Notes: generated from the letters alone by a model not told the origin. Shown: positions 3,878 through 49,674, counted from the first letter of the stretch. The stretch: DNA of 64,000 nt from a virus (IMGVR_UViG_3300025732_000018); one strand, 5' to 3'. Numbers and translations are program-made.

Positions 3878-3954
3878 TGGTGCCCGCGGTAGGACTCGAA
3901 CCTACACTTAGGAGGGTTTAAAGCTCTTGCCTCTGCCGGTTGGGCTACGCGGGC
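3878..3954 (-). tRNA. tRNA-Leu(TAA), short variable loop
   Basis: Reverse complement GCCCGCG...TTTAAAC loop...GTTCGAGTCC...CGCGGGC-ACCA; imperfect anticodon stem. Confidence 0.75.
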
Positions 3955-40196: not shown

Positions 40197-41032
40197 GCCG
40201 CTTCCCCTCTCACGGGAGTCACTGAAATGATGGTGTTCATAGTCATGGTCGACAAGAAGAACGGTGCGACCGAGGTCAACGGCGTCTTCTCTGATCATAA
40301 GAAAGCGTACGAGTGGGTTGACTCGCTCAAGGGTCGTCAAGGCGTCGTCGACGTGTGGGTCACTCGACGCCTGGTCGAGGACTTCAAAGTTGTCTGACAA
40401 CACCAACAAGTTTCTCGACGCTGTAGAGAAGATGATCGACGCGCAGGATGACATGTGGCATGAAGAACAGCACTGTAACTACCGAGAAGTTGAGCGTATC
40501 CGCGACGAGGTCTATAAGCCGGCCCGAGAAGCAGCGCGCTGGTACTTCAGGCAAGCGATCCGGGAGATCGTTAAAGAAAGCCAATAGACACGTAGTCCTA
40601 GAGTACAACCAGGCTCCAACCGACAACGGTGAGCTGGCAAAGATGCTATACGACACTATGGATCACTACCACTACCTCGTCTGCCCCCATAAGACCGACG
40701 AGGAGAGGGAGTACATGAACTCTCAGACTATCTTCGGAATCATCGACCTGGCCAAGACCGAGAACGAGCTTTTCGGCCACTCCTACAGAGCCTTCATCAT
40801 CAACAAGATCAACTTCTACCGAAAGATGATTGAGTTCAACCACGTCGACGACCATACCGTCGGCTACAACCCCACCAAGACGAGGTGGATGAAGTGACTC
40901 AGTCTTTCGAGGAGAGGAACCGAAAGGTCCTCAAGAAGGTCGGCTATTTCAATATCAAAAAGAAAAGAGACCAGGAGAAGGCGAAGGAATCAGTTGACAA
41001 TTTTTACAGGTCTGTGTATGGTATAAATACAA

Positions 41033-41266: not shown

Positions 41267-41409
41267 TGGTATACGTAGCGACTGAAGAAGGCGTACTAGT
41301 TGCGCTGGTCATCGGATCCCTAGCCGGTATCTTGGCTGGGTTCGTCTTATCTCACATCACCTATAGATAAGATCTACACCCTCAGAGGTTTTCCTGGAAA
41401 GGAAGACTA

Positions 41410-41976: not shown

Positions 41977-42489
41977 ATGCGTAACACAATCATTGCAATC
42001 GCTACTTTAATCGCTGGCTCGGCAGTCGCCGCAGACCTTCCGTCTCGCTCGGCACCGCCTGCTCCAGTCGTTCAGGCTCCGGTCTCGTGGTACGTCGGTC
42101 TCAACGGCGGCACCATCGCCGGCAACTCCGGCACTGTCGGTGTCAACGGCGGCCTTCAGTACGGACAGTACGTTCGCGTAGAAGGCGCTTATGACTACGC
42201 TAACACCGGTGGTGGAAACCTTCTCGGTCAGAACACCAACCTGCTGACTGGAAACTTCATCGTTCAGTATCCGGTCGACCAGTTCAAGGTTACGCCGTAC
42301 GCTCTCGCCGGTGCTGGCTACCGCTGGTCGTCGGTCAAGAACGAGCCAATCTACAACGTCGGCGGCGGCGTCCGCTACGGCCTTACCAGCAACGTCGACC
42401 TCGACGCTCGCTATCGCTACGTGTCGTCGACTTCTGACTCGACTCGTAACGCCAGCGTCTACACCCTCGGCGTGAACTACAAGTTCTAA
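41977..42489 (+). CDS. outer-membrane beta-barrel protein (Omp25/RopB-like)
   Basis: Signal peptide, AADLPSRSAPPAP, W-YVGLNGG, PYALAGAG, C-terminal GVNYKF. Confidence 0.88.
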   Translation: MRNTIIAIATLIAGSAVAADLPSRSAPPAPVVQAPVSWYVGLNGGTIAGNSGTVGVNGGLQYGQYVRVEGAYDYANTGGGNLLGQNTNLLTGNFIVQYPVDQFKVTPYALAGAGYRWSSVKNEPIYNVGGGVRYGLTSNVDLDARYRYVSSTSDSTRNASVYTLGVNYKF

Positions 42490-42815: not shown

Positions 42816-43256
42816 ATGGATCAACTAGTCGAAGACATGAAGAGGCTGCTGGCCACTACCTTTTCTTTCTACCTCAAGGCCCATAACTTTCACTGGAACG
42901 TAGAAGGTCAGAACTTTCTTGATCTTCACGAGTTCTTTAAGGACATCTACGAGCAGGTGCACGGCGACGTTGACGCCATCGCTGAGGAGACTCGCGCGCT
43001 AGGATCGTATGTCCCTGGATCGTACTCACGATTCTCGGAGCTGACGGTGATTAACGATGAGACGTCAATCCCTGCGGCTTACGCGATGGTGGCTAAGCTG
43101 GCCTCTGACAACACGACTCTGATGGCCATGCAGAAGAAGGCATACGCCTCGGCTGAGGCTGTCGGCGAGATGGGTCTGTCGAACTTCCTGCAGGACCTGT
43201 ACGACAAGCATAAGAAGATGCAGTGGATGCTCACCTCCCTCAATAAGGGAGAGTGA
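42816..43256 (+). CDS. dps: Dps DNA-protecting ferritin-like protein
   Basis: KAHNFHWNVEG--F--LH-FF---Y, D-IAE--RALG, H-K--WML. Confidence 0.92.
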   Translation: MDQLVEDMKRLLATTFSFYLKAHNFHWNVEGQNFLDLHEFFKDIYEQVHGDVDAIAEETRALGSYVPGSYSRFSELTVINDETSIPAAYAMVAKLASDNTTLMAMQKKAYASAEAVGEMGLSNFLQDLYDKHKKMQWMLTSLNKGE

Positions 43257-43355: not shown

Positions 43356-43368
43356 GTTATAAATATAG

Positions 43369-43524: not shown

Positions 43525-43797
43525 TCAGTCGCGCGACGGCCAGAGTCCGTTGATGCAGATGATGAACGATGGCTCTCCGTTCTCGTAGCCGTAGTACTTG
43601 TTACCATGAGCGTCAGTCTTCCTCAAGTCAGGAAGCTTGAAGTTATGGACGCCATCTCCGCCGTAGTTATTTCCTAGCAGCGCGAACAGCGCTTGATTGT
43701 GGGAGATGTCTAAGGTTTGACCGGCGCAGAAGGCCCACTCTCTCGGTGGGAAGTTGCCGGCGAACATTCTAATTTCTGCTAAGTAGCCTTCCATCAT
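43525..43797 (-). CDS. stand-alone phage tail collar domain protein
   Basis: EIRMFAGNF-P--WAFC-GQ-L-I--NQALFALLG--YGGDG---F-LPDLR; GGAG SD. Confidence 0.85.
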   Translation of the reverse strand: MMEGYLAEIRMFAGNFPPREWAFCAGQTLDISHNQALFALLGNNYGGDGVHNFKLPDLRKTDAHGNKYYGYENGEPSFIICINGLWPSRD

Positions 43798-43852
43798 ATC
43801 TCTCCATGATGTTGGTGTGGGTGAACACAGTATTTATCACGTGAGAGTAGTC

Positions 43853-44344
43853 ATGCGAGTACACATCGGTAAGTATCCTAACAATCCAGACAAAGAGCGC
43901 AAGATCTCAGTCAAGATCGACAAGTGGGACACCTGGTCGATGGACCACACGCTCGCACTCATCATCCACCCCATGCTGGTCCAGCTCAAGGAAACTAAGC
44001 ACGGCGGTCCTTATGTCGACAACGAGGACGTACCGGAGGAGCTGTGGAACACCGACGAGCATGTAGATCCATACGCCTTAGACGATAAGTACTTTGACCG
44101 ATGGGACTACGTTCTTGATGAGATGATCTTTACCTTCGAGAGCCTAACTAAAGACTGGGAGGGAGAGTACTTTATCTCTCACGGCGAGCACGAGTTCGTC
44201 GAGCACGACGACGGGTCCGGCAACGCCACCCTCAACTGGATCAAGAAGCCAGAGGTGGACCGTGAGGGTATGGAGGCCCACGGGGACCGGATCAAGAACG
44301 GCCTGAGGCTTTTCGGTAAGTATTATATGGCCCTCTGGGACTGA
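43853..44344 (+). CDS. conserved phage hypothetical protein
   Basis: KIDKWDTWSMDHTLA-II-PML, RWDYVLDEMI, GLRLFGKYY--LWD. Confidence 0.8.
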   Translation: MRVHIGKYPNNPDKERKISVKIDKWDTWSMDHTLALIIHPMLVQLKETKHGGPYVDNEDVPEELWNTDEHVDPYALDDKYFDRWDYVLDEMIFTFESLTKDWEGEYFISHGEHEFVEHDDGSGNATLNWIKKPEVDREGMEAHGDRIKNGLRLFGKYYMALWD

Positions 44345-44354
44345 AAAAATAGTG

Positions 44355-44391
44355 GTTGACATTATTTCTAAGGTGGTTTATATTATAAATA
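44355..44391 (+). promoter_or_regulatory. overlapping early (TTGACA-17-TATATT) and late (TATAAATA) promoters
   Basis: TTGACA 44356-44361, TATATT 44379-44384, TATAAATA 44384-44391. Confidence 0.8.
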
Positions 44392-44493
44392 ATGGCAATG
44401 ACATATACACACGAGACTAGAATGAAGCCAACGACGAAGTCACACTTTAGGTCGATCCAGCCGCGAGTCAATTGCGGAGCTGCCGTCTCATGA
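44392..44493 (+). CDS. putative 33-aa attenuator leader peptide
   Basis: MAMTYTHETRMKPTTKSHFRSIQPRVNCGAAVS*; ATG at the predicted TSS; stop codon lies inside the antiterminator strand. Confidence 0.65.
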   Translation: MAMTYTHETRMKPTTKSHFRSIQPRVNCGAAVS

Positions 44494-44523
44494 CATGATC
44501 TAAACCAGATCAGAGTTCAAGAG

Positions 44524-44549
44524 GCGGGACCAAGAGTCCCGCTTTTTTT
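44524..44549 (+). terminator. intrinsic terminator (attenuator) upstream of the tRNA array
   Basis: GCGGGAC-CAAGA-GTCCCGC-TTTTTTT. Confidence 0.88.
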
Positions 44550-44646
44550 ATGTTCAACAACAAGAAACTTTGTTGAACATATCGGTTGACAATATTCTCT
44601 AGGCGTGATAGACTAACAATACAGGCTGTTTGAAAATAAACTAACT

Positions 44647-44719
44647 AGACTCCTGGCTCAACGGTGAGAGCGCCGGCCTTTTAAGCCGTGAGGTTCGGGT
44701 TCGAGTCCCGAGGAGTCTG
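44647..44719 (+). tRNA. tRNA-Lys(TTT), CCA not encoded
   Basis: AGACTCC/GGAGTCT; CTTTTAA loop. Confidence 0.85.
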
Positions 44720-44720
44720 C

Positions 44721-44795
44721 TGGCGCGTAGCTCAGCGGAAGAGCAAACGCTTGATAAGCGTTAGGTCGCTGGTTCAATCCCAGCCGCGCCAACCA
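44721..44795 (+). tRNA. tRNA-Ile(GAT)
   Basis: AACGC-TTGATAA-GCGTT; ACCA. Confidence 0.93.
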
Positions 44796-44800
44796 ATTAC

Positions 44801-44876
44801 GGACTGTTAGCTCAGTTGGTAGAGCAGGAGACTCTTAATCTCTTGGTCGTAGGTTCGAGTCCTGCACGGTCCACCA
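44801..44876 (+). tRNA. tRNA-Lys(CTT)
   Basis: GGAGA-CTCTTAA-TCTCT; ACCA. Confidence 0.94.
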
Positions 44877-44881
44877 AATTC

Positions 44882-44958
44882 GCTCCGTTCGTCTAGCGGT
44901 CTAGGACACTGCCCTCTCAAGGCAGAGATCACGGGTTCAAATCCCGTACGGAGTACCA
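44882..44958 (+). tRNA. tRNA-Glu(CTC)
   Basis: CTGCC-CTCTCAA-GGCAG; ACCA. Confidence 0.94.
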
Positions 44959-44964
44959 ATACGT

Positions 44965-45042
44965 TCGGCGGTAGCACTCTAGGTGAGCGCGCTCGGCTGT
45001 TAACCGAGAATGAGGTTGGTTCGAATCCAACCCGCCGAGCCA
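44965..45042 (+). tRNA. tRNA-Asn(GTT)
   Basis: CTCGG-CTGTTAA-CCGAG; GCCA. Confidence 0.92.
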
Positions 45043-45048
45043 AGTTTC

Positions 45049-45123
45049 GGGTGGTTAGCTCAGGGGTAGAGCGGCTGTTTTACACGCAGCGGGTCGGGAG
45101 TTCGATCCTCTCACCACCCACCA
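45049..45123 (+). tRNA. tRNA-Val(TAC)
   Basis: GCTGT-TTTACAC-GCAGC; ACCA. Confidence 0.94.
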
Positions 45124-45297
45124 TTAATGTACCGTAAGACACAACGCTACTGAACCGATTGGTCGTCGGGTGTAGGGTAGCTGGAAGACTTACGCCTCTC
45201 TGCTTTGGAGATTGACCGCCAAAAGCACGTCGAGGAGGGCGCTGGTGCTGACCAGCAGGCAACCGTAGGAGATACGGATCAGCAACATTTTTTTTTT

Positions 45298-45381
45298 GGA
45301 GGATGGCGTGCATGGTGCACACAGAGTCTTGAAAACTCCGCCACCGAAAGGTTGATGGTTCGATTCCTTCATCCTCCGCCA
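45298..45381 (+). tRNA. tRNA-Ser(TGA), possibly 8/4 cloverleaf
   Basis: GGAGGATG/CATCCTCC 8-bp acceptor is possible; CTTGAAA loop; variable arm; GCCA. Confidence 0.85.
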
Positions 45382-45480
45382 ATTCGCTGGATTACTATAG
45401 AGACGGTGTCCTAGGTCTGTCTCTTGTGCTTACCAGTAGAGGAAGCCCGGAAACCTCTATAAACATACGGGTAGAATTTT

Positions 45481-45556
45481 GGGCTCTTAGCTCAGCTGGG
45501 AGAGCAGTAGCTTTGCAAGCTTCAGGTCGTCGGTTCGATCCCGACAGAGTCCACCA
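45481..45556 (+). tRNA. tRNA-Ala(TGC)
   Basis: G3:U70, TTTGCAA loop, ACCA. Confidence 0.94.
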
Positions 45557-45666
45557 CGTTTGAGAGTGAGCCTATGGCGTCTACAGGCTTATTGAGAAGT
45601 ACTGGTTAGGGTTGGATCCCAACACCTCGGTGACACAACAGCCTCATAGCTCTCAAAGCAATTACT

Positions 45667-45871
45667 ACCTGAATACGAGTAGACGCGTGCAAACAAGGTC
45701 GACCGTCAGAATGTCAGGGGTAGCGGGAATACTGACCTGAAGGCCCGCACTAGAAGCGTCGTGTTTGTCCGAGCGTCGTGGATCTCGCTGATAAATGGTT
45801 CAGCATCGGACTCCAGTTTTAGAGTTTTGGCAGAGTTCGGACGAAACTGCCTTGACTTGCACGGTTCAGGT
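45667..45871 (+). ncRNA. candidate structured non-coding RNA
   Basis: Closing stems ACCTGAA/TTCAGGT and CGTGCAA/TTGCACG enclose several hairpins; no credible ORF. Confidence 0.45.
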
Positions 45872-46017
45872 CCTGTGCTTGTGACTGTCGCTTCGGCTGA
45901 CGTTTCAGACCAGATATACTCATGGCTGCTCGGGGGTTATGAGAAGAATTAAATCTGGGGCCGTCGTTATGACCGCCATGGATAGCCCGAGCCAATTTGA
46001 ATAGCTGAGAGGTAAAA

Positions 46018-46359
46018 ATGAGAGAATATATACCAGACAATTGGGTTATTTTTAAAATAATCAAAGATGGTTTTATAATATACAAAGTTCTTGGAGGTTG
46101 GTCTGGTGGTTATCTTCACGGCAGTTCTTGGCAAATGAACAGTGGAATTGTAGGTGTTACAGAAAACGCTTCTTATTATCACTTCAAAGGTTATTCTGGA
46201 TCACTATATAAATGCTCCAAAACATCGTATGGTATTCGTATGAATATCGCAGCAGTTGCGGATAATTTGTTGAAGAAATATCCCGATACAGTTACGTTAA
46301 TGTCTGAAGATACCAATTGGTTCGATTTGGATTTTAATACAAGTTTGGCTCAGAGTTAG
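46018..46359 (+). CDS. hypothetical protein (AT-rich insertion)
   Basis: PDNWV...YKVLGGWSGGYL-GSSW-MNSGI; visibly lower GC. Confidence 0.8.
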   Translation: MREYIPDNWVIFKIIKDGFIIYKVLGGWSGGYLHGSSWQMNSGIVGVTENASYYHFKGYSGSLYKCSKTSYGIRMNIAAVADNLLKKYPDTVTLMSEDTNWFDLDFNTSLAQS

Positions 46360-46419
46360 AGGGATTGTAGGTAGGACCTGTAATATAACCGCCAAGGCGA
46401 TGATTGACTGGGCAACCTT

Positions 46420-46538
46420 CATTATAACTGATGAACACTAGGCTATCATACCGATCCTCCGAGATCGTGACAACAGGCAAAGGTGGCGGGTACCACCGAT
46501 GCAGGATGGGAAACCCCCTAGTGTTCTTCTGTTATAAT
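46420..46538 (+). ncRNA. candidate structured RNA abutting tRNA-Tyr
   Basis: Long terminal stem CATTATAAC-TGATGAACACTAGG / CCTAGTGTTC-TTCTGTTATAATG enclosing small hairpins. Confidence 0.45.
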
Positions 46539-46623
46539 GGGAGAGTGTCCCGAGCGGCAAAGGGGGAGGACTGTAAATCCTTTGGCTAAGCCTGCGTAGG
46601 TTCGAGTCCTACCTCTCCCACCA
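46539..46623 (+). tRNA. tRNA-Tyr(GTA)
   Basis: CTGTAAA loop, variable arm, ACCA. Confidence 0.94.
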
Positions 46624-46641
46624 ATTCTAAGTGAGGTTGCT

Positions 46642-47439
46642 ATGGAAAATCGCTGCATCGTGTTCTCTATCAAGTGGGTGAACGTTCATAGTCTTAGAGA
46701 CAATGAGCACTATCACATGCTGCTGCACTCACTGAGAAGCATTAGAAAGCACAGTGACATAGACATAGTCGTCTATACCGACCCGATCGATCTTCTATTG
46801 GAGGATGAGCACCTTAGGGAAATCGCCGGCATCCAACTCATGGAGTTCGATTCGTCCAAGTTCAAGGTAGAGGGAGACCCGTGGCTGTGGGAGTGGTCAG
46901 AAGTCGTCCTCCATAAGTGGCCGAACTGTGTAGATCTGCTTCTCAATCATAGGTACGATCGCGTGTTCTTCAGTGACCCCGACGTTCACTTCTATCAGGA
47001 CCCTAACCGCATCTTCGACGCCTATACGGACCCGAGCAAGGTCTACATAAAGCGAGAAGACTGGGGTGCGGTCAAAGGGTTCAACGACGGGACGTTCATC
47101 TTGAGTCGCGAGGTTGCCGAGAAGCTGGTTGACTACATGACTCTCTATCCCCCCATCAGGGAGAAGATGATAGCCGACTATCGCGAGAGCAAGAAGTTTG
47201 ATCCCGCGAAGCTCAAGCAGTTTAGGTGGGTCACCTATCAACACGCTACTCGTTACATGTTTGACGAACTAGGAATAGAGGTCGAGTGGCTGGACAAGCG
47301 TTACGTCAGAAAGATGGATGACGAGCCAGGAGAGAACTGGGTCGATGAGTTCGTGACTGACGACCTCGTGGCGGTGCACTACTACAGACACCATGCCAGA
47401 AGGTTCGTGCCGTACTTCAAGTACAGGCAGAAGTTATGA
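46642..47439 (+). CDS. nucleotide-diphospho-sugar transferase (GT-A)
   Basis: SLRSIRKH, VFFSDPDVHF (DxD), FNDG-F, late HY. Confidence 0.72.
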   Translation: MENRCIVFSIKWVNVHSLRDNEHYHMLLHSLRSIRKHSDIDIVVYTDPIDLLLEDEHLREIAGIQLMEFDSSKFKVEGDPWLWEWSEVVLHKWPNCVDLLLNHRYDRVFFSDPDVHFYQDPNRIFDAYTDPSKVYIKREDWGAVKGFNDGTFILSREVAEKLVDYMTLYPPIREKMIADYRESKKFDPAKLKQFRWVTYQHATRYMFDELGIEVEWLDKRYVRKMDDEPGENWVDEFVTDDLVAVHYYRHHARRFVPYFKYRQKL

Positions 47440-47501
47440 CGGAATCGGTTGGTCGCGACAAATAGACCCGCCGGGAGCCACGGTCAGCTCCCAACAGTTT
47501 C

Positions 47502-47577
47502 GCCCGTATAGCTCATCAGGTAGAGCGCCTGTTTTGTACTCAGGAGGCGGTGGGTTCGAGTCCTGCTGCGGGCTCCA
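47502..47577 (+). tRNA. tRNA-Thr(TGT)
   Basis: CCTG-TTTTGTACT-CAGG; TCCA. Confidence 0.9.
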
Positions 47578-47582
47578 AGACT

Positions 47583-47658
47583 GGTCTCGTAGTATAATGG
47601 TCTATTATGCTCGACTGTCCATCGAGAGACGAGGGTTCGATTCCCTTCGAGACCGCCA
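47583..47658 (+). tRNA. tRNA-Asp(GTC)
   Basis: CTCGA-CTGTCCA-TCGAG; GCCA. Confidence 0.92.
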
Positions 47659-47666
47659 CTATATTT

Positions 47667-47743
47667 GCCTGGAGGGGGGTATTGGCTATCCCACCATCCT
47701 CATAAGATGGCTCAAGCTGGTTCGATGCCAGCTCTAGGCACCA
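47667..47743 (+). tRNA. tRNA-Met(CAT)
   Basis: CCATC-CTCATAA-GATGG; ACCA; unusual D arm. Confidence 0.82.
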
Positions 47744-47745
47744 AT

Positions 47746-47820
47746 CCTGCGCGTGGTGTAAAGGAAGCACGAGAGATTGTGGCTCTCTTAGCCCTGGTTC
47801 GATACCAGGCCGCAGGACCA
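47746..47820 (+). tRNA. tRNA-His(GTG), alphaproteobacterial type (A73, no G-1)
   Basis: AGAGA-TTGTGGC-TCTCT; ACCA; T at position -1. Confidence 0.87.
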
Positions 47821-47828
47821 ATATATAA

Positions 47829-47907
47829 CTGGGTGTAGCGTAGTCTGGTTTATCGCGCCTGATTTGGAGTCAGGAGATCGCAGGTTCGAATCCTGCCACC
47901 CAGACCA
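47829..47907 (+). tRNA. tRNA-Pro(TGG)
   Basis: CCTGA-TTTGGAG-TCAGG; ACCA. Confidence 0.94.
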
Positions 47908-48024
47908 GTTAGGGAGAGAGCGATGACTCTGAAGGAGTGGCTAGAGGTGCTGTTATACGTGGCGTGGATGCCACTGACGGTGCTCGCCGTCCTCGCGTTA
48001 TACATCTCTCTCCTCTTAGAATGA

Positions 48025-48098
48025 TGGGAGATAGTTTAACGGTAGAACAGTGGACTCTGACTCCTCTAGTCTTGGTTCGAATCCAGGTCTCCCAACCA
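48025..48098 (+). tRNA. tRNA-Gln(CTG)
   Basis: CTCTGAC loop; TGGGAGA/TCTCCCA; ACCA. Confidence 0.92.
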
Positions 48099-48099
48099 T

Positions 48100-48174
48100 G
48101 GTGCCTGAGTGGGACGGTAACGCACGGGACTGCAAATCCTTGAGAACCCGGTTCGACTCCGGGAGGCACCTCCA
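48100..48174 (+). tRNA. tRNA-Cys(GCA)
   Basis: CTGCAAA loop; U73 (TCCA). Confidence 0.9.
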
Positions 48175-48181
48175 AAGAATT

Positions 48182-48258
48182 GGTTCCGTAGCTCAACTGA
48201 AGAGAGCATCGCGCTACGAACGCGAAGGTTGAGGGTTTGAATCCTTCCGGGACCTCCA
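48182..48258 (+). tRNA. tRNA-Arg(ACG)
   Basis: TCGCG-CTACGAA-CGCGA; TCCA. Confidence 0.9.
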
Positions 48259-48287
48259 TTATATCATGCCAACAGAAGAGGTATATC

Positions 48288-48515
48288 ATGTTTTGGTATG
48301 TAATACTCGTAGTGATCAACGCAAACGGCACTGCAAACGCCACGACACACTATCCAAAGTCTCCAGCTTACAACAACGAGACTAACTGTCGCGAGTACGC
48401 CACTGTGTTGGCCGATAAGGTTCAACTTGAGAAGGGTACCAGCAACGCGAAAGTGTTCTGGAAGTGCGAGTCACTCTCGTACGAGACAATTGCTAAGACC
48501 CTCCCTCGTACGTGA
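48288..48515 (+). CDS. small secreted/membrane hypothetical protein
   Basis: GAGG SD, hydrophobic N-terminus, two Cys. Confidence 0.65.
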   Translation: MFWYVILVVINANGTANATTHYPKSPAYNNETNCREYATVLADKVQLEKGTSNAKVFWKCESLSYETIAKTLPRT

Positions 48516-48554
48516 AGTATAAATGTATAGTTAGAATCAGCGCAGAGAGCATCA

Positions 48555-49430
48555 ATGATCCTCATAACGTCGGCAGTCGAGACTTATCCTAGAAAGATAA
48601 TAGACTGCATCAAGAGCAGATCAAGGGTGCCGGCGATAGTAGTCAACCTCAAGAGAGACCCGCGCTTGCTCAGGAACTTGAACCCGAGTCTGACGCTAGT
48701 GCACTTCAGAGGAACTGGTTATAATGCCCTCACGCGCGACGGAAGGTTTGAGATCATAAACAGCCTCGAGTCGATCACCAACACGACGAGAAAACACTAT
48801 GGCCAGATGAAGGCTATCTCTCTCGGAATACGCAGTCCCGACACGGATCCACTTCCGATAGAAGGTGGAAGTCTAGCCGTCATAGAGTCGCGCGTCGCCG
48901 CTGCGTTCGAGAGTAGGGGATGGACTAGCTGCGTCATAAAGCCGTCGACGTCGCGCGGACAGGGCGTCTTCGTCCTGAAGCTAGAACGAGACACGTTTAG
49001 AGAGACGCTCATGGGTATCAACCTCGAGATACCGGAGTGGTTCATTCAGGAGACTGTCTCTTTCAAGAGACTAGTTCGAGTCATGACTATCGGAGGCAAG
49101 ATCGTCGAGGGGGCTGTAACTTACGACTACCCAAGAGACGGGAACTGGAAGTGCAGCGTGTGCATGAACCCACTAGCACTTCACGAGAGAGATCCAAGCC
49201 CGGAGCTTCTTGACTTCATACGGTTGATAACTCAGCGACTAACCCTTACAGACAGTCGAGGCATATCTTATATCGACGTCTTTGAGACCGAAAATGGATA
49301 CGTCTATAATGAGACTAATACTAGTTGCAACCTAGTGCATCAAGAGAGAATAACTGGAGTGCCTCTAGCAGACATGACTGCCGAGTACCTACTCGGTGAG
49401 CATGACAGGCATCTATCCAGGCGGCCGTAG
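48555..49430 (+). CDS. RimK-like ATP-grasp ligase
   Basis: VIKP---RGQGVF, FIQE, VRV--IGG, NWK, IDVFE--NGYV-NE-N. Confidence 0.82.
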   Translation: MILITSAVETYPRKIIDCIKSRSRVPAIVVNLKRDPRLLRNLNPSLTLVHFRGTGYNALTRDGRFEIINSLESITNTTRKHYGQMKAISLGIRSPDTDPLPIEGGSLAVIESRVAAAFESRGWTSCVIKPSTSRGQGVFVLKLERDTFRETLMGINLEIPEWFIQETVSFKRLVRVMTIGGKIVEGAVTYDYPRDGNWKCSVCMNPLALHERDPSPELLDFIRLITQRLTLTDSRGISYIDVFETENGYVYNETNTSCNLVHQERITGVPLADMTAEYLLGEHDRHLSRRP

Positions 49431-49495
49431 CTCAATGGTAGAGCAAGACGTTGCCAACGTTTAGACGAGGAGTTCGATTCTCCCCGGCCGCTCCA
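49421..49495 (+). tRNA. tRNA-Gly(GCC)
   Basis: TTGCCAA loop; TCCA; overlaps the ATP-grasp stop codon. Confidence 0.93.
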
Positions 49496-49500
49496 ATATC

Positions 49501-49578
49501 GCCCCACTAGCCCAACTGGTTAGAGGTGCTTGCCTTAGAAGCAAGAGGTTCTCCGTTCGAATCGGAGGTGGGGCACCA
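49501..49578 (+). tRNA. tRNA-Leu(TAG), short variable loop
   Basis: CTTGC-CTTAGAA-GCAAG, 5-nt variable loop, ACCA. Confidence 0.88.
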
Positions 49579-49597
49579 AACAAACTTACTAGCGTTC

Positions 49598-49674
49598 GGT
49601 CACGTAGCTCAGCAGGACAGAGCATCGGTTTCCTAAACCGAGGGTCGGAGGTTCGAGTCCTCCCGTGATCACCA
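49598..49674 (+). tRNA. tRNA-Arg(CCT)
   Basis: TCGGT-TTCCTAA-ACCGA; ACCA. Confidence 0.93.

Follow-up and report, generated by a model that had tools for sequence, protein, structure and literature searches.

In the leader-peptide attenuators that precede enterobacterial amino-acid operons and pheST (trpL, hisL, leuL, thrL, ilvL and pheL), a short ORF is followed by an intrinsic terminator, the antiterminator shares bases with that terminator, and the 5′ arm of the antiterminator is covered once a ribosome reaches the stop of the leader ORF, so that complete translation favours termination while stalling favours read-through. The leader described here, which precedes the tRNA genes of a phage, has the same order of parts and the same predicted exclusion of one fold by the other. 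It differs from the trp/his type in having neither a run of regulatory codons nor a conserved anti-antiterminator (1:2) helix, and since no conserved 1:2 helix is present, the absence of translation should give read-through and not termination. Other differences are that the predicted start of the ORF coincides with the RNA 5′ end or directly adjoins it, that a dual early and late promoter lies ahead of it with a second promoter behind the terminator, and that the target is a set of phage tRNA genes where the trp/his-type leaders control biosynthetic genes.

The closest functional analogues are the vmlR and bmrCD leaders of B. subtilis (PMC9226507, PMC4191407) and the leader ORF toiL upstream of topAI in E. 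coli (bioRxiv 10.1101/682021), which sense general translation stress and in which ribosome progress, rather than one amino acid, sets the level of read-through. In these leaders the signal is an antibiotic and the genes controlled are resistance or toxin genes, and toiL works through Rho, whereas in the leader described here stalling is putative. Leaders of the vmlR, bmrCD or toiL type are not known from phage or from a position before tRNA genes, and a full-text literature search yielded no report of attenuation ahead of tRNA genes in phage.

The window, by which we mean the whole 64,000 nt stretch of DNA that was analysed (IMGVR_UViG_3300025732_000018), is from a T4-like freshwater phage. 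It encodes a family B DNA polymerase with ~51% identity to cyanomyovirus polymerases, a clamp loader, a gp46-like SMC ATPase and three head proteins, namely the protease, the scaffold and the major head protein. Near-identical DNA was present in several freshwater metagenome runs. Nearly all genes in the window are on the + strand, and there are 29 tRNA genes in the window as a whole. A tRNA with anticodon UUA (reading UAA, suppressor type) was called by ARAGORN on the - strand at 3878-3954, beside a tRNA-Met and the head genes. Among the tRNA genes there are also genes for a Dps/ferritin-like protein (42816-43256) and for an OmpA-like beta-barrel protein of the outer membrane that carries a signal peptide (41977-42489), the latter suggesting a Gram-negative host. 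Between two tRNA groups lies a gene for a 90-aa protein with a phage tail-collar domain (43525-43797, - strand), which is conserved in all relatives and is the only clear minus-strand gene of that region.

We read the leader region at 44355-44650 as a ribosome-dependent transcription attenuator which acts on the transcript from promoter P1 ahead of the main tRNA array, the presumed regulated target, and we put the probability of this reading at about 0.5. Conservation, statistics and the thermodynamic balance of the predicted folds all speak for an attenuator architecture, while the start sites, ORF translation, the timing and the role in the cell are inferred. The features are listed in Table 1. 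The initial annotation of this DNA had described a pair of early and late promoters before a 33-codon ORF using 17 amino acids, a strong terminator at 44524-44549 and a second promoter near 44585; each of these was found where it had been placed, the promoter pair and the terminator being retained in all seven alleles of the leader that are described below.

Table 1. Features of the leader region and its surroundings, with positions in the window.
Feature	Position	Strand	Details
Gene adjoining the leader	43853-44344		PHROG 11543, no function assigned
P1, early promoter of sigma-70 type	44356-44384	+	TTGACA 44356-44361, 17-nt spacer, TATATT 44379-44384; 11 of 12 consensus matches
Putative T4-type late promoter element	44384-44391	+	TATAAATA; overlaps P1 -10, abuts ATG 44392; invariant in all alleles
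Leader ORF, 33 codons	44392-44493	+	In-frame ATGs 44392, 44398, 44422; stop TGA 44491-44493
Small hairpin inside ORF	44459-44475	+	CCGCGA / TTGCGG; predicted in folds of all alleles
Candidate antiterminator	44483-44527	+	Outer helix CCGTCTC 44483-44489 / GAGGCGG 44521-44527; second helix TGA(C)/(G)TCA
Intrinsic terminator	44519-44549	+	GCGGGAC 44524-44530, loop CAAGA, GTCCCGC 44536-44542, T7 44543-44549
11-bp inverted repeat	44550-44580	no strand	ATGTTCAACAA-N9-TTGTTGAACAT; just upstream of P2 -35
P2, second early promoter	44586-44614	+	TTGACA 44586-44591, 17 nt, TAGACT 44609-44614, TGn extension; directly before tRNA array
Main tRNA array	44647-49674	+	Lys-UUU first at 44647; 21 tRNAs interrupted by a few ORFs

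The adjoining PHROG 11543 gene was used as bait for metagenomic phage contigs with the same leader, and seven distinct leader alleles from three sublineages were recovered (the window, L083, L084, the L085 type, L093, the L104 type and L108). Identity to the window at the DNA level is ~90% for L083 and ~86% for L084, while the neighbouring protein is 58-59% identical in L093, L104-L107 and L108. The contigs L104 (95 kb) and L105 (157 kb) both carry the leader before the main tRNA array, with a tRNA order that differs from that of the window; in the L104 lineage this array has 18 tRNAs. A cluster-mate of the neighbouring protein was also found on a 249-kb contig. L085-L091 represent the same phage as the window and are identical to it elsewhere, with a recombinant patch over 43800-44510. 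In a comparison over ~8 kb, L085 and the window were identical save for this patch, which covers the adjoining gene and the leader ORF. In L085/L086 the patch is a recombination mosaic, in which ~27% of nucleotides differ in the gene and ~10% in the leader and which has its right border at the inner hairpin.

A layout of ORF, antiterminator and terminator before the tRNA arrays of relatives had been named as a check in the initial annotation and was present in all seven alleles and all three sublineages. Common to the seven are P1 with TATAAATA, three in-frame ATGs, the ORF, the same TGA, the terminator, both alternative structures, the inverted repeat and P2. This layout is retained although the neighbouring gene drops to 59% amino-acid identity, and the reading frame, the three ATGs and the stop codon are retained across ~30-45% nucleotide divergence plus an in-frame indel. 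The seven alleles form one narrow clade and share ancestry.

The leader was not found beyond this clade in the phage collection, in IMG/VR, in a pattern scan of JGI metagenomes or in L046. A DNA-level search of the phage collection gave no record matching the window, and phiM12-like, Limnohabitans and other phages with protein-level relatives of the neighbouring gene did not share the leader. In IMG/VR, nhmmer found no leader at 80 loci with the neighbouring gene, exact patterns gave 0 matches and the 265-aa gene of the array had no relative, while the JGI pattern scan matched a single contig which was already known. Contigs of P0006, P0014, P0015 and P0025 had a different gene context and were rejected. 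L046, from a more distant phage, was also rejected; it has the same neighbouring gene before a tRNA array, but a plain promoter, no terminator and a small membrane-like ORF.

P1 is preceded by an A-tract and is kept in all alleles, its -10 hexamer being TATTAT in five relatives. Together with P2 it belongs to a promoter family of ~14 copies, all on the + strand, defined by GGTTGACAttattt, a 17-nt spacing and a TAyTAT-like -10 hexamer, and the hexamers of P2 are invariant in all alleles extending that far. The element TATAAATA occurs nine times on the + strand of the window and is absent from the - strand. The scaffold and major head genes follow the copies at 1072 and 2111, and sites of this kind stand 24-36 nt ahead of scaffold, major head and other genes. 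Because of the strand bias and the position before head genes, it is well supported that TATAAATA would act as a T4-type late promoter, and the site at 44384 is probably used in this manner.

There is no copy of TATAAATA between 44392 and 56084, so that late transcription must cross the terminator at 44524-44549 to reach the tRNA array. The late sites upstream of the array are at 44384, 43358 and 41022 and a transcript from any of these would meet the terminator. P2 lies behind the terminator, which means that the array could be expressed early without any need for read-through. Dependence of the regulated genes on read-through, as in the trp/his type, would here be confined to late transcription driven by TATAAATA. 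Judged from the sequence and the T4 paradigm, a gate at the leader would matter mostly late in infection.

Several other elements were observed in this part of the window. A second tandem of early and late promoters is found at 40994-41029, where TTGACA-17-TATGGT overlaps TATAAATA, and is followed by a normal GGAG leader, an ORF of ~72 codons and a terminator-like hairpin (41319-41340). The copy of TATAAATA at 43358-43365 lies between tRNA-Ser(GCU) and tRNA-Met, 3 nt before the tRNA, and may be a late promoter which starts at the tRNA 5′ end or may be due to chance. The inverted repeat between the terminator and P2 has the same spacing in L104/L108 with a different spacer and one uncompensated mismatch, and in L084 an 11-nt insertion stands beside it; this pattern would fit a dimeric protein-binding site better than an RNA stem. 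At the predicted start of the P2 transcript (44622-44640) there is a conserved GCTGTTTGAAA, which reads GYTGTTTGAAA in L084 and L104. We take this sequence to resemble the boxA of rRNA operons at ~9 of 12 positions, a likeness which could hint at processive antitermination through the array.

A strong promoter and a strong terminator of its own, with P2 directly after, are also what would be expected if the leader were a separate mini unit. P1 would then drive a small protein gene or a small RNA of ~155 nt which ends at a constitutive terminator, the terminator would shield P2 from upstream transcription and P2 alone would drive the array, while the long hairpin would be a 3′ stabilising structure that overlaps the terminator without regulatory use. 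T4-like phages carry many tiny early genes, which adds to the appeal of this explanation.

The ORF is open in 7/7 alleles with 32 or 33 codons, always starts ATG-NNN-ATG and ends at the same TGA, and its sole indel is of 3 nt; the other two frames of the leader carry stops. Over the 5′ 66 nt, where 28 of 66 columns are invariant, all nine bases of the three ATGs are invariant (hypergeometric P = 2e-4), and invariant columns number 12, 9 and 7 of 22 at codon positions 1, 2 and 3, respectively. The third positions of two Ala/Val codons inside the antiterminator 5′ arm (GCC, GYC) never vary whereas those elsewhere do, which points to RNA-level constraint. Constraint on the peptide was assessed by placing the observed substitutions again at random and comparing the peptide pair scores. 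The peptide was better conserved than under random placement for the window vs L093 (P = 0.0035) and for L093 vs L104 (P = 0.006), and several pairs were not significant (P = 0.13-0.27; window vs L104 or L108, P = 0.13-0.19). Some protein-level constraint in two comparisons would suit a small protein gene, but this constraint is weak and inconsistent and to that extent argues against one. We read the result as selection for an open frame and for its starts with a weakly constrained peptide, as expected of a regulatory leader.

Chance has to be weighed at the same point, since an open frame might be an accident within a conserved spacer between promoter and terminator and its complementarity a by-product of the G+C-rich terminator. 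Random substitution sets left the frame open on one branch in ~33-42% of cases and the alleles all share ancestry, as such an origin would have it, but the invariance of the ATGs at P = 2e-4 is not accounted for in this way. Chance is weighed again below with the complementarity.

From textbook promoter-to-start spacing, transcription would start at ~44391/2 from the early promoter and at ~44397 from the late promoter, so that the first and second ATG would each begin on the start site or one base after it. These two ATGs are six bases apart and both are invariant in all relatives, and leaderless translation from 44392 or 44398 would be consistent with this arrangement. An ATG directly after the promoter element is found only at 44384; the other early and late promoters are followed by a leader of 15-40 nt with a strong Shine-Dalgarno sequence (AAGGAG, GGAG or AAGGA), so that leaderless starts here would be an exception. 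An alternative may be a start at the third ATG (44422), which in every allele is preceded at 6-7 nt by a Shine-Dalgarno-like GAGA/GGGA or AGGA and would give a 23-codon version of the ORF. The small hairpin inside the ORF has an invariant stem and a loop that varies in L093, ends 7 nt before the 5′ arm of the antiterminator and is possibly a pause hairpin.

The codon content of the ORF is ordinary. The initial annotation had seen in it a design of rare codons and a broad sensor of the tRNA pool, and neither idea was supported. Mean RSCU values of 0.94-1.16 are typical of the genes of this phage, and ~15% of 33-residue stretches, whether random or real, use as many as 17 amino acids (P about 0.15). 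No repeated run of regulatory codons was found in the leader ORF. Exactly cognate to the anticodons of window tRNAs are 50-61% of leader codons vs a background of 55% in long ORFs, and no meaningful match of the leader codons to the array, which covers 18 amino acids, was obtained. Three Arg codons match three phage tRNA-Arg genes in the window allele and are not kept in L093. For Gln, leader and array agree in both the window and L104. The window leader has Phe and the window is without tRNA-Phe, while the L104 array has a tRNA-Phe and its leader is without Phe. If the ORF senses anything, it is ribosome progress in general, and a link to anticodon nucleases is speculation.

The initial annotation had also proposed that CCGTCTCATGA (44483-44493) pairs with TCAAGAGGCGG (44517-44527) around an inner hairpin TGATCT/AGATCA. 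We recovered both structures, the former with 10 of 11 positions paired, one G-U and one A-A mismatch, and the latter at 44496-44512 (arms 44496-44501 and 44507-44512). The predicted antiterminator is a conserved imperfect hairpin of 17-18 bp with variable loops, and in every allele the stop codon is situated where the outer helix gives way to the second. Its outer helix (44483-44489 / 44521-44527) shares GCGG with the terminator stem, which can be extended to 12 pairs.

Stepwise folding of the nascent RNA indicated that the antiterminator is the MFE structure once 44527 has been made, with a gain of 10-12 kcal/mol. Hairpin energies across the seven alleles were -18.9 to -28.7 kcal/mol for the antiterminator and -15.8 to -18.0 kcal/mol for the terminator. 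When local states from the 5′ arm to the T tract were compared (absolute energies -20 to -31 kcal/mol across alleles), the outer helix and the terminator with inner hairpin differed by 0-1.6 kcal/mol in six alleles, while in the window allele the terminated state was ahead by 4.2 kcal/mol. For the whole leader at full length, the MFE contained the antiterminator in L083, L084, L085, L093 and L104 and the terminator in the window and L108. In these predictions the balance of the two states is kept while the sequences change.

Addition of the 3′ arm in the window gave a gain of -12.1 kcal/mol vs -4.8 +/- 2.4 in 1000 dinucleotide shuffles of the upstream RNA, of which 4/1000 were as good, and the same test in four relatives gave 0-1/1000, so that p <= 0.004 applies overall to the five alleles. 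Some strong competitor for the GGCGG stretch was yielded by 3.5-11% of shuffles, a frequency which leaves room for accidental complementarity, but the energy gain itself (p <= 0.004) and the balance of states that persists despite changed sequences both count against chance, which together with the ATG invariance makes that explanation highly improbable.

The same folds bear on the mini unit. In its favour, the predicted equilibrium fold of the window allele is the terminated one. In 6/7 alleles, however, the competing hairpin is equal to or stabler than the terminated state and it forms first, which is a poor fit to an unconditional terminator, and the complementarity is unlikely by chance in shuffles and is kept across sublineages. 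We therefore consider a separate small gene or small RNA with a constitutive terminator to be rather unlikely.

The hairpin at 44483-44527 could instead be a site of binding or cleavage for a protein, such as a phage antiterminator or RNase III, or for an RNA, with the ORF being incidental; such a factor would decide between termination and read-through, or would separate the tRNA precursor from the RNA upstream of it. In the early RNAs of T7 and T4, long imperfect hairpins serve as RNase III sites, and a conserved 17-18 bp imperfect hairpin with variable loops, alternative states that are near-isoenergetic and the weak, inconsistent constraint on the peptide would all be in keeping with this. 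An incidental ORF is difficult to reconcile with a frame, three ATGs and a stop retained through ~30-45% nucleotide divergence and an in-frame indel, or with a stop codon whose place in the 5′ arm does not change between alleles. A search of 44355-44646 against Rfam 15 gave no match at E <= 1, T-box included, with only the tRNAs scoring, and no candidate factor was found. We regard control by such a factor as distinctly unlikely.

Covariation, which had been suggested as a check, was not seen: no pair was altered on both sides in the fixed-column alignment, and none was changed on both sides in a covariance-model alignment in which the three divergent alleles were not realigned structurally. 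In the outer helix a U-G pair in the window corresponds to C-G elsewhere, in the second and inner helices U-A is exchanged with U-G, and in the terminator C-G with U-G and G-U with G-C. Stem substitutions are wobble-compatible while loops and junctions vary freely, and in the terminator 94% of cells over the seven alleles are paired with all changes wobble-compatible. The three divergent alleles have their inner helices rebuilt in a shifted register, with the A-A mismatch replaced by a bulged A and one pair inserted, and one U-A appears in them as C-G when aligned by structure. We take this as a conserved structure in which pairs have changed on one side, and do not count it as covariation. 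In the outer helix both arms are under a second constraint, the 5′ arm as the C-terminal codons and stop and the 3′ arm as part of the terminator stem. The helix equivalent to an anti-antiterminator (1:2) was not conserved among the alleles, as GAGAC can pair with GUCUC in the window allele alone and a T>C change disrupts this helix in relatives.

The ribosome was modelled as a mask reaching from -12 to +15 relative to the P site. When the P site holds the last sense codon, the ribosome covers ~44476-44503 and with it the whole 5′ side of the antiterminator, whereas with the P site at or before ~codon 25 the 5′ arm is left free. Folding with and without a masked ribosome segment had been put forward in the initial annotation, and with a mask at the stop the terminator was the predicted fold in every allele. 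The stem of the terminator starts 31 nt past the stop and is outside the footprint, so that a terminating ribosome would not itself block the terminator (compare PMC4824070). Taken as a whole, the earlier comparison with trp/his-type attenuators stands for the layout, which is conserved and has balanced folds, and fails for the regulatory codons, the anti-antiterminator and the dependence on read-through.

The proposed mechanism of the attenuator would be as follows. P1 would fire early through its sigma-70-type promoter and late through the T4-type TATAAATA, with starts at or beside the first two AUGs, and the short ORF would be translated as 33 codons, or as 23 from the third AUG with its preceding Shine-Dalgarno sequence. 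A ribosome on the last codons or the stop (footprint ~44476-44505) as GAGGCGG at 44521-44527 emerges would block the outer helix, upon which the terminator would fold and RNA polymerase would stop at 44549. If the ribosome were late, stalled or absent, the hairpin 44483-44527 would form first and hold the base of the terminator stem, and with the antiterminator formed the polymerase would read across P2 into the tRNA genes. In this way slow decoding would raise transcription of the tRNA genes. P2 would supply translation-independent early expression, and late transcription would be the gated part.

RNA and DNA libraries gave limited coverage of the locus. In the freshwater metatranscriptome X7, a contig of 389 nt at depth 5 matches 44412-44800 without difference and bridges the terminator, P2 and the first two tRNAs; DNA carry-over is possible in such a library and contigs are not single molecules, so that it is a weak hint of read-through RNA and an equally weak point against a constitutive terminator. 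In X7 no contig covers 44019-44369 and one starts at 44412, at a depth of 2-6 which indicates neither a start site nor silence. X22 and X23 had nothing on the leader, with contig depths of 2-6 that are too low to indicate absent transcription. The DNA run X2 contained a joint 44498>44606 in one contig with a 30-nt side, which is not interpretable.

The order of tRNA genes behind the leader differs strongly between sublineages. In L084 an extra ~200 nt (880-1084) between P2 and tRNA-Lys holds a structured segment and a tRNA-Phe(GAA), a tRNA that is absent from the window, and in L104 a tRNA-Phe is found deeper in the array.

The tRNA genes of phages are usually regarded as cargo with constitutive expression. 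A fuller version of the attenuator reading would be that a leaderless test ORF, transcribed from early and late promoters, measures decoding capacity, that a ribosome at its stop gates late transcription into the 21-tRNA array, and that the supply of tRNA is thereby homeostatic when translation slows, the leader being a lineage-specific version of a wider, unpublished class of phage leader-ORF attenuators. We offer this version tentatively, as possible but doubtful. Were the mini unit correct, the locus would be a tiny gene and a terminator next to a tRNA promoter and of little interest. The element is ~200 nt in length and the strength of the antiterminator varies among its natural alleles (a U-G pair in the window where relatives have C-G), which makes it well suited to reporter assays and Term-seq. 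If the fuller version is true, a slowing of translation by host tRNA shortage, tRNA-targeting defence or host shut-off would lead to more phage tRNA. A ribosome-operated switch ahead of a tRNA array would imply that phages adjust their tRNA supply by feedback from translation itself, which would bear on why large phages carry tRNA sets and on how they might answer tRNA-directed host defences.
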